Source of the DNA: Escherichia coli
GTDB taxonomy: Bacteria > Pseudomonadota > Gammaproteobacteria > Enterobacterales > Enterobacteriaceae
Assembly: GCF_001677475.2 (NCBI RefSeq)
Contig: NZ_CP015229.1
Length of the DNA stretch: 64,000 bases
Reading direction: 5' to 3' (one strand)
A program made the position numbers and the translations under genes. Positions 7,040 to 27,104 of this stretch are shown in pieces (the stretch's first letter is position 1; each line of letters opens with the position of its first letter). The notes below the pieces were generated by a model. The model did no database searches. It was not told the DNA's origin and saw nothing but the letters and a program-made list of their open reading frames with translations.

Positions 7040-7765
7040 ATGGCAACATTAACTGCAAAGAACCTTGCAAAAGCCTATAAAGGCCGTCGCGTGGTAGAAG
7101 ACGTCAGCCTGACCGTCAACTCCGGGGAAATTGTCGGCCTGCTGGGGCCAAACGGTGCCGGTAAGACCACCACTTTCTATATGGTTGTAGGCATTGTGCC
7201 GCGCGATGCGGGCAACATCATTATTGATGATGACGATATCAGTTTGCTGCCTCTGCATGCACGCGCGCGCCGCGGTATCGGCTATCTGCCACAGGAAGCC
7301 TCCATTTTCCGTCGCCTCAGCGTTTACGATAACCTGATGGCGGTACTGCAAATTCGTGACGACTTGTCTGCTGAACAACGTGAAGACCGCGCGAACGAGC
7401 TGATGGAAGAGTTTCACATTGAGCACCTGCGTGACAGCATGGGGCAGTCACTCTCCGGGGGTGAACGTCGCCGTGTAGAAATTGCCCGCGCACTGGCTGC
7501 GAATCCGAAATTTATTCTGCTCGACGAACCGTTTGCCGGGGTTGACCCGATCTCGGTTATCGACATTAAACGCATCATTGAGCACCTGCGCGACAGCGGC
7601 CTGGGCGTGCTGATCACTGACCACAACGTGCGTGAAACACTGGCGGTTTGTGAACGCGCTTATATCGTCAGTCAGGGGCATTTGATCGCCCACGGCACGC
7701 CTACAGAAATCTTACAAGACGAACACGTTAAGCGTGTATACCTTGGGGAAGACTTCAGACTCTGA
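7040..7765 (+). CDS. lptB: LptB, LPS export ABC ATPase
   Basis: ORF track 7040..7765(+), 241 aa; Walker A (GPNGAGKTT). Confidence 0.95.
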
Positions 7766-20700: not shown

Positions 20701-22280
20701 CGGGCGTGACGCTGATCTCCCCGCCGCCGCACCATGATATCTACTCTATCGAGGACTTAGCGCAGCTTATTTTCGACCTCAAGCAGGTTAACCCGAAAGC
20801 GATGATCTCCGTGAAGCTGGTTTCCGAACCGGGCGTAGGCACCATCGCGACTGGCGTGGCAAAAGCTTATGCCGATTTAATCACCATCGCAGGCTATGAC
20901 GGCGGCACCGGCGCAAGTCCGCTTTCATCGGTGAAATACGCAGGCTGTCCGTGGGAACTCGGCCTGGTGGAAACCCAACAGGCGCTGGTTGCCAACGGTT
21001 TACGTCATAAAATTCGTTTGCAGGTTGATGGCGGCCTGAAAACGGGCGTTGATATCATCAAAGCGGCGATTCTCGGCGCAGAAAGCTTCGGCTTCGGCAC
21101 TGGCCCAATGGTCGCGCTCGGTTGTAAATATCTGCGAATTTGCCACCTGAACAACTGCGCCACGGGTGTAGCAACTCAGGATGACAAACTGCGTAAGAAT
21201 CACTATCACGGCCTGCCGTTCAAAGTGACTAATTACTTTGAGTTTATCGCCCGTGAAACCCGCGAACTGATGGCACAGCTGGGCGTAACGCGTCTGGTGG
21301 ATCTGATTGGTCGCACCGACCTGCTGAAAGAGCTGGACGGTTTCACCGCCAAACAGCAGAAACTGGCGCTGTCGAAGCTGCTGGAAACCGCCGAACCGCA
21401 TGCAGGTAAGGCGCTCTACTGTACCGAAAACAATCCGCCGTTTGATAACGGCCTGCTGAACGCGCAGTTGCTGCAACAGGCGAAACCGTTTGTCGATGAA
21501 CGCCAGAGCAAAACCTTCTGGTTCGATATCCGCAACACCGACCGTTCTGTCGGCGCGTCGCTTTCAGGCTATATCGCCCAGACGCACGGCGATCAGGGGC
21601 TGGCAGCCGATCCTATCAAAGCGTACTTCAACGGCACCGCAGGCCAGAGTTTCGGTGTGTGGAACGCGGGCGGCGTGGAACTGTACCTGACCGGGGATGC
21701 CAACGACTATGTCGGTAAAGGCATGGCGGGCGGCTTAATCGCCATTCGTCCTCCGGTTGGTTCCGCCTTCCGCAGCCATGAAGCAAGTATTATCGGCAAC
21801 ACCTGCCTGTATGGCGCGACCGGTGGTCGTCTGTATGCCGCAGGCCGCGCGGGTGAACGTTTCGGCGTGCGTAACTCCGGTGCTATCACCGTGGTAGAAG
21901 GCATTGGCGACAACGGCTGTGAATATATGACGGGTGGTATCGTCTGTATTCTGGGTAAAACCGGCGTTAACTTCGGCGCGGGCATGACCGGCGGCTTCGC
22001 TTACGTTCTCGATGAAAGCGGCGATTTCCGCAAACGCGTTAACCCGGAACTGGTCGAGGTCTTAAGCGTTGACGATCTGGCGATCCATGAAGAGCATCTG
22101 CGTGGTCTTATCACCGAGCATGTTCAGCATACTGGCTCTCAGCGCGGTGAAGAGATTCTGGCGAACTGGTCAACCTTCGCCACTAAATTTGCGCTGGTTA
22201 AACCGAAGTCCAGTGATGTAAAAGCACTGCTGGGTCACCGTAGTCGTAGCGCAGCAGAGTTGCGCGTGCAGGCGCAGTAA
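17727..22280 (+). CDS. gltB: Glutamate synthase (NADPH) large subunit
   Basis: ORF track 17712..22280(+) trimmed to MTRKPRRHALSV...; the mature N-terminal Cys of the amidotransferase domain sits in ...ERDNCGFGLIAHIEG. Confidence 0.95.
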   Translation: MTRKPRRHALSVPVRSGSEVGFPQSLGEVHDMLYDKSLERDNCGFGLIAHIEGEPSHKVVRTAIHALARMQHRGAILADGKTGDGCGLLLQKPDRFFRIVAQERGWRLAKNYAVGMLFLNKDPELAAAARRIVEEELQRETLSIVGWRDVPTNEGVLGEIALSSLPRIEQIFVNAPAGWRPRDMERRLFIARRRIEKRLEADKDFYVCSLSNLVNIYKGLCMPADLPRFYLDLADLRLESAICLFHQRFSTNTVPRWPLAQPFRYLAHNGEINTITGNRQWARARTYKFQTPLIPDLHDAAPFVNETGSDSSSMDNMLELLLAGGMDIIRAMRLLVPPAWQNNPDMDPELRAFFDFNSMHMEPWDGPAGIVMSDGRFAACNLDRNGLRPARYVITKDKLITCASEVGIWDYQPDEVVEKGRVGPGELMVIDTRSGRILHSAETDDDLKSRHPYKEWMEKNVRRLVPFEDLPDEEVGSRELDDDTLASYQKQFNYSAEELDSVIRVLGENGQEAVGSMGDDTPFAVLSSQPRIIYDYFRQQFAQVTNPPIDPLREAHVMSLATSIGREMNVFCEAEGQAHRLSFKSPILLYSDFKQLTTMKEEHYRADTLDITFDVTKTTLEATVKELCDKAEKMVRSGTVLLVLSDRNIAKDRLPVPAPMAVGAIQTRLVDQSLRCDANIIVETASARDPHHFAVLLGFGATAIYPYLAYETLGRLVDTHAIAKDYRTVMLNYRNGINKGLYKIMSKMGISTIASYRCSKLFEAVGLHDDVVGLCFQGAVSRIGGASFEDFQQDLLNLSKRAWLARKPISQGGLLKYVHGGEYHAYNPDVVRTLQQAVQSGEYSDYQEYAKLVNERPATTLRDLLAITPGENAVNIADVEPASELFKRFDTAAMSIGALSPEAHEALAEAMNSIGGNSNSGEGGEDPARYGTNKVSRIKQVASGRFGVTPAYLVNADVIQIKVAQGAKPGEGGQLPGDKVTPYIAKLRYSVPGVTLISPPPHHDIYSIEDLAQLIFDLKQVNPKAMISVKLVSEPGVGTIATGVAKAYADLITIAGYDGGTGASPLSSVKYAGCPWELGLVETQQALVANGLRHKIRLQVDGGLKTGVDIIKAAILGAESFGFGTGPMVALGCKYLRICHLNNCATGVATQDDKLRKNHYHGLPFKVTNYFEFIARETRELMAQLGVTRLVDLIGRTDLLKELDGFTAKQQKLALSKLLETAEPHAGKALYCTENNPPFDNGLLNAQLLQQAKPFVDERQSKTFWFDIRNTDRSVGASLSGYIAQTHGDQGLAADPIKAYFNGTAGQSFGVWNAGGVELYLTGDANDYVGKGMAGGLIAIRPPVGSAFRSHEASIIGNTCLYGATGGRLYAAGRAGERFGVRNSGAITVVEGIGDNGCEYMTGGIVCILGKTGVNFGAGMTGGFAYVLDESGDFRKRVNPELVEVLSVDDLAIHEEHLRGLITEHVQHTGSQRGEEILANWSTFATKFALVKPKSSDVKALLGHRSRSAAELRVQAQ

Positions 22281-23711
<1,431 letters not shown>

Positions 23712-23720
23712 GCTCTGTCC

Positions 23721-23753
23721 CAGCGCCGCCTCCTCAGAAAAGAGTCGGCGCTG
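23721..23753 (+). terminator. Putative gltBD terminator hairpin (approximate coordinates)
   Basis: Inverted repeat cagcgccg...cggcgctg starting about 10 bp after the gltD stop; the following T-run is weak. Confidence 0.4.
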
Positions 23754-23894
23754 AAATTCTCCTTTCTTTCTGGAAAGCGCCTCGCATAATCTGAAGAAAA
23801 CCAATGTAATACGCTCATCTGGATTGTTACCGGTAGATGCCCGGCGTATAGCTGATTCCATTATTCAACGCAGCGCCATATAAAGGGACAGATA

Positions 23895-25022
23895 ATGGAA
23901 TCGCTCTCAGAGAGAACCTCAACAGGCTACCAGCAAATCCACGACGGTATTATTCATCTGGTCGATAGCGCACGGACGGAAACGGTACGTAGCGTTAACG
24001 CGCTGATGACCGCGACATACTGGGAAATTGGCCGACGAATTGTCGAATTTGAACAAGGTGGCGAGGCCAGGGCTGCGTATGGTGCGCAGCTAATCAAGCG
24101 ACTATCAAAGGATTTAAGTCTAAGGTATAAGCGTGGGTTCTCTGCAAAAAACTTACGCCAAATGAGGCTTTTTTACCTCTTTTTTCAACATGTTGAAATT
24201 CGCCAGACAGTGTCTGGCGAATTAACACCATTGGGAATTCCGCAGACACCATCTGCAGAATTCCCATCGGCAAAGATTTGGCAGACGCTGTCTGCCAAAT
24301 CTTTCCCCCTGCCCTGGTCCACCTACGTCCGTTTACTTTCCGTTAAAAACGCTGACGCCCGCAGCTTTTATGAAAAAGAGACGCTCCGCTGTGGCTAGTC
24401 TGTTCGCCAGCTAGAACGGCAAATTGCGACCCAATTTTATGAGCGAACACTACTGTCACATGACAAATCAGCCATGCTGCAACAACATGCTCCTGCCGAG
24501 ACGCATATTCTTCCGCAACAGGCGATACGCGATCCTTTTGTGCTTGAATTTCTGGAGTTGAAAGATGAATACTCAGAATCCGATTTTGAGGAGGCGCTGA
24601 TCAACCACCTGATGGATTTCATGCTGGAACTTGGGGATGATTTTGCCTTTGTTGGTCGACAGCGAAGGTTACGCATTGATGACAACTGGTTTCGTGTCGA
24701 TCTGCTGTTTTTCCACCGCCGTTTACGCTGCCTGCTAATCGTCGATCTAAAAGTGGGCAAATTCAGCTATAGCGATGCCGGACAGATGAATATGTATCTC
24801 AACTACGCCAAAGAGCACTGGACGCTACCGGATGAAAATCCGCCCATCGGTCTGGTTCTCTGTGCAGAGAAAGGAGTCGGAGAAGCGCATTATGCACTGG
24901 CTGGTTTGCCTAACACCGTTCTGGCGAGTGAATATAAGATGCAACTACCTGATGAAAAACGACTCGCGGATGAACTCGTTCGAACACAGGCGGTGTTAGA
25001 GGAAGGCTATAGACGCCGTTAA
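23895..25022 (+). pseudogene. yhcG: yhcG (DUF1016 / PD-(D/E)xK nuclease-like family) interrupted by one in-frame TAG codon
   Basis: Track ORFs 23895..24398 (167 aa) and 24474..25022 (182 aa) are in the same frame. The only interruption is TAG at 24396..24398 (sequence tgt ggc TAG tct gtt cgc). Read-through length is about 375 aa, the size I recall for intact K-12 YhcG. Confidence 0.8.
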
Positions 25023-25081
25023 TTTCAGCGGTTTCGAATTCTCCAGACACTGTCTGGAGAATCTTTAAAACGAACTAAATT

Positions 25082-26414
<1,333 letters not shown>

Positions 26415-26418
<4 letters not shown>

Positions 26419-27104
26419 AGCACCGCCTTTTTCATCGCTGTGTTGTACCACTGACAAATGTGTTCAAGACGCGTAATGGCAGAACCGACCGTCACCGCCC
26501 ACGCGCCGTGGCGCATCGCATCTGCCGCCTGAGCAGGCGTGTTGTAACGCCCTTCGGCAATCACCCGACATCCGGCGTCGCTCAACGTTTTCACCAGCGC
26601 CAGATCCGGCTCTTCTGGCGTTTCAGGCGTGGTATAGCCAGAAAGCGTAGTGCCAATAATTTCGGCTCCCAGCTTTTGGCATGCCAGGCCGTCTTCCGGC
26701 GTTGAGCAGTCGGTCATCGCCAGTAAACCGTGATGGTGAATACGTGCCAGCAACGTTTCAACAGGCACCGGACGCGGGCGGTCGGTGCCGTCAATGGCGA
26801 TAATGTCCGCGCCCGCCTGCGCCAGCGCATCAACATCTTCAATATAGGCCGTGATGCGTACCGGAGAATCCTCCAGATCGCGTTTCACAATTCCAATAAT
26901 CGGCACGCTCACCACCGCACGCGTGGCTTGCAGATTTGCCACACCTTCAATACGAATGGCGACCGCGCCCGCCTGCTCTGCCGCTAATGCCATGGCAGCG
27001 ACGATTTCGGGTTTATCGAGCGGGCTGTCCGGAACCGGCTGGCAGGAGACAATCAGGCCACCGTTAGCAGCGATTTTTTGATCCAGTTGTGCAAGTAACG
27101 ACAT
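26415..27104 (-). CDS. nanE: NanE, N-acetylmannosamine-6-phosphate 2-epimerase
   Basis: ORF track 26415..27146(-) trimmed to [12 protein letters not shown]... (229 aa); 4-bp overlap with the nanK start. Confidence 0.93.

Follow-up and report, generated by a model that had tools for sequence, protein, structure and literature searches.

What keeps a set of near-identical palindromes inside a protein-coding gene, the nucleic acid or the peptide that it encodes? The question is raised by yhcG, a gene for a nuclease of the DUF1016 family, in a 64,000-nucleotide stretch of Escherichia coli DNA (contig NZ_CP015229.1 of assembly GCF_001677475.2; the whole stretch is referred to as the window). A sequence-only reading had pointed out four palindromes here, and had offered a miniature element that colonised the gene, protein-binding sites or RNA structure affecting translation as explanations. 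All four palindromes of 27–29 nt were found where that reading had placed them, and the peptides given for the first three (IRQTVSGE, IPQTPSAE and IWQTLSAK) are right; the spacing of these units, estimated at about 40–45 bp, is 39 nt from start to start in both intervals, that is, exactly 13 codons. Almost certainly, the palindromes are copies of a hairpin that is ancestral to the linker-coding part of yhcG/DUF1016 genes and under selection as nucleotide sequence, with the peptide repeat as a by-product of translation. Units are gained and lost in tandem (1–5 per gene), and occasionally one comes to stand just outside the gene, as unit 4 in the window and the fifth copy of E. coli K-12, after gltD.

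The arms and coordinates of the units are listed in Table 1. Folded as single-stranded DNA, the units had energies between −10 and −16 kcal/mol and z-scores between −5 and −9 relative to shuffled sequences; unit 1 gave −14.7 kcal/mol (z = −9.3) and unit 3 −15.8 kcal/mol. Unit 2 has two mismatches in the window and one in K-12. A C-G pair of unit 1 is T-A in unit 3, which puts W and K in the peptide instead of R and E. The copy after yhcG reads TGCAGAC..GTCTGCA in K-12 and TCCAGAC..GTCTGGA in the window; both arms have changed and the pairing is kept. The region of unit 4 is 78% identical to that of unit 1 over 40 nt from position 25023, which includes 14 nt 5' of the palindrome. The extended motif TTCNCCAGACNNTGTCTGGNGAA (up to 3 mismatches) matched in the 64 kb at these sites alone, with 0.01 matches expected by chance. 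Tandem Repeats Finder reported no array in 24100–24400; the units are just ~63% alike.

Occurrence and base pairing of the hairpin in the YhcG/DUF1016 family

A search of 1.84 billion cluster representatives for relatives of YhcG yielded 21,155 clusters at 50% identity (E ≤ 0.001). In relatives that could be anchored on the flanking motifs, the stretch from the MRxFY helix to the LSWSHY helix usually holds one to several short peptide repeats. For the analysis of the DNA, 80 homologous loci (53–66% identity) were fetched with the 10-sequence alignment A2, covering Beta-, Gamma- and Deltaproteobacteria, Ignavibacteria, Cyanobacteria, Verrucomicrobia, Nitrospirae, Planctomycetes, Acidobacteria, Gemmatimonadetes, Elusimicrobia and the archaeon Methanoperedens. 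The hairpin was present at the equivalent position in 80 of the 80 loci, including that of Methanoperedens, with 1–5 units per gene. This position is the linker between the N-terminal helical domain and the remainder of the protein, which ends in a PD-(D/E)XK nuclease. The density of palindromes (11-nt arms, at least 10 positions paired) was 7.9 per kb in the linker-coding stretches versus 0.09 per kb elsewhere. The consensus is (G)ATT-N5-GAC-RSY-GTC-N5-AAT(C), with a stem of 11–12 bp and a loop of 3 nt; the tandem period across the family is 36–48 nt, and one reading frame is common to 126 of 128 units.

Hairpins of the same geometry, perfect or near-perfect, were also found in all six distant homologues (35–42% identity) with DNA; three more were scored by motif spacing alone. 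The unit peptides of distant homologues look unrelated (IRDALRLES, EIHNSVVEI, IPYTVCRES, ILHTLCGES), and in distant lineages the core varies (CAC..GTG, AAC..GTT, GACGC..GCGTC). At one locus (L093) the units are 36, 38 and 37 nt apart, with the result that the hairpin is read in two reading frames within one gene. Presence/absence polymorphism of a unit, the sign of an insertion, was not seen in the 80 loci and the six distant homologues; copy number alone varies. Because all homologues examined, whatever their phylum, have it at one position, the hairpin is ancestral to the gene family. In an AlphaFold2 model of YhcG (56-sequence alignment, mean pLDDT of 80), residues 6–96 form the N-terminal helical domain and residues ~97–133 are without secondary structure (pLDDT 45–56), followed by a helical middle part and the PD-(D/E)XK domain; by this model, the hairpin sits in DNA that codes for a predicted disordered and tolerant linker.

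Base pairing was assessed at sites chosen by the left arm only (ATT.....GAC). The right arm was complementary at 10 or more of 11 positions in 62 of 80 linker sites, and all five unspecified positions were complementary in 48 of the 80; in the rest of the loci 2 of 44 sites reached 10 of 11 and 3 reached 9, the others being at chance level. In the alignment obtained in this way 89.4% of the cells were paired, compared to 76.3% in shuffles, and the number of double-change cells was 127 versus 46.8±5.2 (none of the 500 shuffles reached the observed number). Pairing fell to 21–46% when the partners were slid. The compensatory changes and the loss of pairing on sliding are those of a base-paired hairpin in general. 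At the four variable pairs C-G, G-C, T-A and A-T are all used, with few mismatches, and the units of one gene have differing middles that are each self-complementary. Since units of the same gene differ mid-stem yet pair with themselves, a duplex site read base by base is excluded and intrastrand pairing is indicated; the middle is not read as sequence, and it is the pairing that is kept.

Codon use in the hairpins differed from that elsewhere in the same genes: Ser was encoded by TCT in 92 of 106 cases (87%) versus 122 of 1359 (9%), Ile by ATT in 84 of 88 versus 246 of 940, and Gln by CAG in 78 of 78 versus 661 of 1042. After shuffling of synonymous codons the best palindrome had 7.7 of 12 pairs, as against 11.1 in the actual genes (p ≤ 0.05 in 65 of 69 genes). 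In GC-rich genomes the hairpin imposes rare codons. Peptides as different as IRQTVSGE, ISETLSRK(S), IRDALRLE(S) and EIHNSVVE(I) are all encoded by hairpins. The peptide repeat follows from nucleic-acid pairing, since N5 stays complementary, synonymous codons are forced and L093 uses two frames. A mere peptide repeat, the outcome that the sequence-only reading had named as speaking against a DNA element, is contradicted by the orthologues, which keep the palindrome while the peptide changes (ISETLSRKS, IRDALRLES, EIHNSVVEI). A structural repeat under protein-level selection was rejected: the peptide changes while the pairing stays, synonymous sites are constrained and both frames of L093 give hairpins.

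The pairing is also visible in the protein alignments. The amino acid that follows the conserved Ile covaries with the one seven residues further along: R, Q, P, L or H (C-initial codons) occur with E (GAA), V (G-initial codon) with Q (CAA), and W (TGG) with K (AAA). This covariation is chemically senseless for the protein and exactly as predicted by base pairing of the arms. Covariation such as R/E, V/Q, W/K and Q-G/E-R thus stems from base pairing and not from protein structure, which matters to the inference of contacts and motifs from protein alignments. A hairpin that is kept by covariation in coding sequence from E. coli to an archaeon, and that dictates the amino acids of a linker, is a rare constraint. 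No description of it was found in Rfam 15 or in the literature (open-access papers and bioRxiv).

Copies in E. coli and copies outside the gene

A 34-nt query was searched against 5426 complete E. coli genomes (E ≤ 10). It matched at 1–4 places per genome (median of 2), and each place that was listed or inspected lies in yhcG, adjoins it or is right after gltD. The genome-wide search proposed in the sequence-only reading thus did not reveal a dispersed motif, and colonisation of the gene by a miniature element is at odds both with this small number of places and with the fixed position in all homologues examined. Five copies are present in K-12: three in yhcG, one after yhcG and one (copy 0, L006:631-658) 11 nt past the gltD stop, at the left edge of a gltF-yhcADEF segment that the window lacks. 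In one frame copy 0 reads IRQTVSGESNY*. YhcG alleles of 349, 362 and 375 amino acids have one, two and three units, respectively, by which the hairpin explains the length polymorphism of E. coli yhcG, as well as the rearrangement-prone interval between gltD and nanQ; a second allele class of 370–391 amino acids has other units. The YhcG orthologues of Salmonella, Citrobacter and Kluyvera have one unit each. The unit of Pseudocitrobacter (AAATTGTGCAGAC-ACT-GTCTGCACAATT) is perfectly palindromic and differs from E. coli by three compensated pairs. No copy downstream of yhcG was seen in Salmonella or Pseudocitrobacter.

Units of the family type outside the linker are rare; within 1.5 kb of ~70 genes they were found at L018, L076, L087 and perhaps L081. 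At L018 one unit lies between the hsdM stop and the DUF1016 start. At L076 an upstream array of three units, without coding context and with FPLSLW after it, looks like what is left of a DUF1016 linker. Independent insertion of the extragenic copies was considered and rejected on two observations: unit 4 shares its 14-nt upstream flank with unit 1, and the L076 array has the context of a linker. For the same reasons the extragenic copies are treated as local duplicates or relics.

A scan of metagenomes with the exact pattern gave 126 sites, of which 95 were inside a YhcG-type open reading frame (ORF), 3 were near one and 28 had none nearby. Where a unit lacks a YhcG gene, the gene may have been lost and left a relic, or the unit may function independently of the protein. 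Two of these orphan units (L155, L206) are obvious relics. Others are downstream of a MobF/TraI relaxase gene, in the related contigs L201, L107, L154, L181 and L204 and also in L219 (5353-5379); the unit of L201 (7673-7699) adjoins an AbiEi/AbiEii-like pair, identified by eye. A further orphan unit (L222:6465-6491) precedes a Type I hsdR gene by ~200 nt. Of the 6 matches in viral contigs, 3 were in DUF1016 genes. One perfect viral unit stands in the spacer that separates the prohead protease gene from the major capsid gene (L101:1341-1367), and another in an ORF of 95 amino acids (peptide MIGQTVSGQS) on a 327-kb contig (L098:7562-7588).

Folded DNA or RNA, and a proposed partner of the hairpin

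The stem cells that are not Watson-Crick pairs comprised 15 G:T and 34 A:C. In a second sample, consisting of secondary units in metagenome loci on different contigs and taken at a looser threshold of 8/11 pairs, the numbers were 33 and 53. The wobble signature of a sense-strand RNA helix was absent from either sample, G:T not being enriched (48 in total versus 87 A:C). The loop has the consensus R-S-Y, and its triplets are closed under reverse complement (ACT/AGT, ACC/GGT, AGC/GCT, GCC/GGC), by which the whole element is dyad-symmetric. The complementarity of the loop ends was at chance (63 versus 59.5 expected), so that the loop is a true one of 3 nt. The dyad symmetry would follow if each half-site were under a single constraint, ATT-N5-GAC-R on either strand. 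Together, mismatch spectrum and loop symmetry modestly favour an element at the level of DNA.

Rfam 15 gave no match at E ≤ 1 in 22000–27000, and on 14 homologous loci the units matched just sub-threshold microRNA-hairpin noise. A sub-threshold match to the small RNA rsmX (54.4 bits, gathering threshold 56) was observed at the margin of the Stutzerimonas locus (L040:1-79), ~1.4 kb upstream of the YhcG homologue, and is probably just a neighbouring gene. Neither a conserved slippery heptamer nor an internal start was found after the units by eye; the T-run 5' of unit 1 is specific to E. coli. A terminator and promoter scan of 23650–25250 did not report unit 4, which lacks the combination of GC-rich stem and T/U run. 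It is followed by CTTTAAAA on one strand and GAAACC on the other, with no U-tract; on the basis of tail and scan, an intrinsic (Rho-independent) terminator was ruled out.

YhcG matches the phage-defence candidate PDC-S02 of PADLOC (E = 2e-131), a single-gene candidate. No model for YhcG was found in NCBIfam and no relative in a sequence search of the PDB. Foldseek placed the nuclease domain nearest to NucS/EndoMS, Bax1 and Can2, generic PD-(D/E)XK neighbours only, and in an earlier profile analysis its closest neighbours were archaeal Holliday-junction resolvases and YraN (PMC1189080). The YhcG/DUF1016 nucleases, which are uncharacterised, make up a very large family that is common in restriction-modification operons and mobile elements: its genes have been noted near genes under programmed inversion and within Type I restriction-modification operons (PMC9881135), and on conjugative elements (PMC4316617). 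The loci fetched here agree: in L018 hsdM lies upstream, L095 is surrounded by a methylase and a ResIII helicase, and L091 by relaxosome genes. For this family the hairpin is a first concrete experimental handle.

Tentatively, we propose that the hairpin is a folded DNA site of the gene's own YhcG nuclease. The element would act as a hairpin on single strands or as a cruciform in supercoiled duplex, and would be a cis site of the YhcG protein, the sole partner that always travels with it; YhcG is named as the partner because it is always co-inherited with the hairpin and its nuclease domain is resolvase-like. Binding, and perhaps cutting, by YhcG at its own gene may restrain a potentially toxic defence nuclease through autoregulation or sequestration, and as a side effect the linker would be a hot spot for recombination, deletion and duplication. 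Several points weigh against this proposal. Co-inheritance only is what connects protein and hairpin, and their partnership is put forward with less than even confidence. Arms of 12 bp with a 3-nt loop extrude poorly as cruciforms in vivo, on the basis of cruciform kinetics. About 22% of the exact metagenome matches have no YhcG gene within 1.8 kb. The yhcG of the window, a pseudogene (see below), keeps good hairpins, which fits recent inactivation and lends no support to self-recognition. Finally, the excess of A:C may come from coding preferences (for instance Lys AAA versus Glu GAA at one stem position), which leaves the case for DNA over RNA weak. A bolder version is unlikely. Here the gene would be a self-contained module of a nuclease and its own DNA structure: the palindrome would extrude or fold on changes in supercoiling or single-strandedness (for example in phage infection, conjugative entry or replication stress), be the cognate junction or hairpin substrate of the encoded nuclease and serve as a switch that senses such stress and licenses, sequesters or propagates the product of the gene. 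If true, this would be a cis-encoded DNA-structure sensor or self-homing element, categorically new, in a family of ~21,000 clusters at 50% identity.

The explanations that compete with a folded DNA site differ in what they make of the same observations. A hairpin in the mRNA could pause ribosomes at a domain boundary, protect or direct processing of the mRNA, or act as an antitoxin-like cis RNA decoy for the nuclease, comparable to the 36-nt ToxI repeats. The element is always in a transcribed region, nearly all units share one frame, the stems are strong, the extragenic copies belong to the same transcription units, in whose 3' or 5' untranslated regions they lie, and the tandem period resembles that of type III antitoxin repeats. 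The RNA structure affecting translation that the sequence-only reading had suggested is possible; we regard it as somewhat unlikely, because A:C mismatches outnumber G:T, a dyad symmetry that is not required of an RNA ligand extends over conserved nucleotides and loop, a U-tract, a conserved slippery site and a match to an Rfam family were not seen in the searches above, and the fold of YhcG is that of a DNA nuclease. That the palindromes instead form a module for recombination or mobility, being broken and rejoined by host functions or an unlinked recombinase in the exchange of modules or cassettes, with extragenic copies as cassette borders, is decidedly unlikely. In its favour, a unit bounds the mosaic patch of the window, alleles have one, two or three units or deletions ending at units, yhcG of strain ECO2947 ends at unit 3, joints associated with IS1 are at copy 0 and in unit 3 (all described below), copy 0 marks the left edge of the gltF-yhcF island, the unit of L018 separates hsdM from DUF1016, and orphan units adjoin MobF relaxase genes and hsdR. 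On the other side, extragenic units occur at ~4 of 70 loci and are absent from Salmonella and Pseudocitrobacter, a conserved flanking motif like a nick site was not seen (columns +13 to +15 are variable), no recombinase co-occurs, and evolvability alone seldom keeps a site across phyla.

A non-adaptive origin, in which template-switch errors perfect a quasi-palindrome in a tolerant linker and produce covariation without function, is very unlikely. E. coli is known to mutate by template switching at quasi-palindromes, the linker is predicted to be disordered and tolerant, and one such event, or else conversion from unit 2, could account for the two changes that separate unit 4 of the window from that of K-12. 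Nevertheless, 80 of 80 loci from different phyla agree in position, length of the stem, loop of 3 nt, ATT/AAT base and AC..GT top, which are kept in a shifted frame as well, rare codons are imposed in GC-rich genomes, and the same genes have no comparable palindromes elsewhere. The three remaining readings, a dispersed miniature element, a double-stranded operator for a transcription factor and a purely structural peptide repeat, are essentially excluded. The palindromes look like repetitive extragenic palindromic (REP) or miniature inverted-repeat transposable element (MITE) units and share GAATTC ends of the EcoRI type; an element dispersed like REP, bacterial interspersed mosaic elements (BIME), MITE or Rickettsia palindromic elements (RPE) is ruled out by the occurrence at no more than 4 places per E. 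coli genome, with every place listed or inspected at the yhcG locus, and by the ancestry of the hairpin in the family. Interrupted palindromes of the GACNNNGTC type are typical of sites for dimeric proteins; the unconserved stem positions differ among three units of one gene that are each self-complementary, which makes unlikely the plain protein-binding site that had been considered from the sequence. The QTxS motif recurs as a peptide repeat would predict, and against this the peptide varies where the hairpin is kept and synonymous sites are constrained.

The hairpin resembles translated palindromic elements, REP with their REP-associated tyrosine transposases (RAYT), folded recombination sites and autogenous cis sites, and has the defining features of none. 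Like RPE, the units are palindromes translated as an extra, tolerated peptide segment. RPE are dispersed, mobile insertions of 100–150 bp in many unrelated genes and variably present among orthologues, whereas the yhcG unit is 27 nt long and inherited with one gene family, at one position in every homologue examined. With REP/BIME and RAYT it shares short imperfect palindromes, covarying arms and, as an idea, a folded palindrome that would be recognised by a nuclease-type protein to whose gene it is linked. REP have hundreds of extragenic copies and a different consensus, and RAYT transposases are HUH enzymes; the yhcG unit is found at ≤4 places per genome, mostly in the gene, and its linked protein is a PD-(D/E)XK nuclease. 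The ToxI repeats of the type III toxin-antitoxin system ToxIN are similar in having tandem units of ~36–39 nt by or in the transcript of a nuclease implicated in phage defence, and the L076 array is likewise upstream. ToxI repeats precede the toxin gene and fold into pseudoknots, and the endoribonuclease that processes them has a different fold; the yhcG units are simple hairpins in the reading frame with no wobble signature, and they accompany a PD-(D/E)XK nuclease that resembles NucS, Bax1 and Can2. Membership of the type III systems was rejected, given repeats in the reading frame and a fold other than that of ToxN/AbiQ. As in integron attC sites, structure is conserved while sequence is variable and the hairpin rather than the duplex would be the working form. 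An attC site has 57–141 nt, R/L boxes and extrahelical bases, is located 3' of cassettes and needs IntI; the perfectly paired 11–12 bp stem with a 3-nt loop lies in a gene, no integrase was seen in the flanks, and attC membership was rejected. The sites of dimeric PD-(D/E)XK restriction enzymes (e.g. GACNNNGTC, Tth111I) have the same GAC-N3-GTC core and dyad symmetry. A duplex site needs no complementarity at positions that are not read, unlike the N5 of yhcG, which stays complementary and differs among units.

The yhcG locus and its rearrangements

The gene order in the window is gltD, yhcG and yhcH/nanQ, followed by nanK and nanE, a locus of the E. coli type (Table 1). An in-frame amber codon (TAG) at 24396–24398 takes the place of TGG at codon 168 of yhcG; K-12 has TGG. 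W168 is invariant in the family alignments A1 and A2 and at least 90% conserved in A3. Because the amber codon replaces a near-invariant residue, yhcG of the window strain is a pseudogene, or two ORFs (23895–24398 and 24474–25022). Three units do lie in the yhcG frame, as the sequence-only reading had it; the frame itself is broken further downstream by the TAG.

Table 1. Positions of the hairpin units and other features in the window
Feature	Position	Strand	Sequence	Description
Unit 1	24197–24223		AATTCGCCAGACA-G-TGTCTGGCGAATT = AATTCGCCAGAC-AGT-GTCTGGCGAATT	Perfect, 13/13 complementary; encodes (E)IRQTVSGE(L)
Unit 2	24235–24263		GAATTCCGCAGACACCATCTGCAGAATTC; arms GAATTCCGCAGAC-ACC-ATCTGCAGAATTC	Imperfect, 9/11 stem pairs; encodes IPQTPSAE
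Unit 3	24275–24301; with 15-bp arms 24272–24304		AAAGATTTGGCAGAC-GCT-GTCTGCCAAATCTTT	Perfect; arms extend to 15 bp at 24272–24304; encodes IWQTLSAK
Unit 4	25036–25063		GAATTCTCCAGAC-ACT-GTCTGGAGAATC	12/12 complementary; in the yhcG-yhcH/nanQ convergent spacer, 13 nt past the yhcG stop
Tandem array	24183–24300	+		Three 39-nt (13-codon) units; codes for the predicted disordered inter-domain linker, ~residues 97–135 of YhcG
gltD	22293–23711	+		
yhcG	23895–25022	+		Stop at 25020–25022; DUF1016_N and YhcG_C PD-(D/E)XK nuclease; based on ORFs, comparison with K-12, PADLOC and Pfam domains precomputed for homologues
yhcH/nanQ	25082–25546	−		Convergent with yhcG, stop at 25082
Mosaic patch	24139–24290	+		~150 nt, 50–70% identity to E. 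coli WWCOL-236, flanks 95–100%; ends in the right arm of unit 3

In the window, Salmonella, Pseudocitrobacter and E. coli WWCOL-236, gltD is directly followed by yhcG (23712–23894 lie between them in the window). In K-12 the two genes are separated by ~7 kb (L006:618-7827) with gltF, yhcA, yhcD, yhcE::IS5 and yhcF, and the octamer TAACAATG stands just before copy 0 and again after yhcF (L006, ~7645–7652). A match to yhcG was found in 4467 of the 5426 E. coli genomes and a full-length match in 3349. The interval between gltD and nanQ is a variable hot spot in E. coli. In E. coli 23CRST013 (L003) it was observed to hold another island, with a DUF5682 protein, a VWA protein and small ORFs, and to retain yhcG as an 86-nt fragment of the N-terminal domain.

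Joints at the units were seen in several strains. In some alleles (P0032, P0036) a deletion begins at a unit, and L011 has a hybrid unit. In ECO2947 (L002:3450-3915) yhcG breaks off exactly where unit 3 ends; in place of unit 4 and the remainder of the gene there are ~460 nt of unrelated DNA, which contains a 101-amino-acid ORF annotated as 'transposase' and a hairpin of its own (GGCACAGAGC..GCTCTGTGCC). In E. coli E54 (L001:2204-3020; likewise L004 and L005) IS1 replaces the segment from gltF through the N-terminus of yhcG. The left end of this IS1 is 1 nt after copy 0 and the right end cuts the left arm of unit 3; since the 9-bp target duplication is absent, this arrangement is an IS1-associated deletion with both joints at hairpin units. 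In K-12, a divergent non-coding RNA (G0-10703), induced in stationary phase, overlaps the 5' region of yhcG by 128 bp, according to a published study with RNA-seq and mapping of transcription start sites (PMC7967276). This RNA (upstream of L006 7828) is unrelated to the hairpins and is of relevance to the regulation of yhcG.

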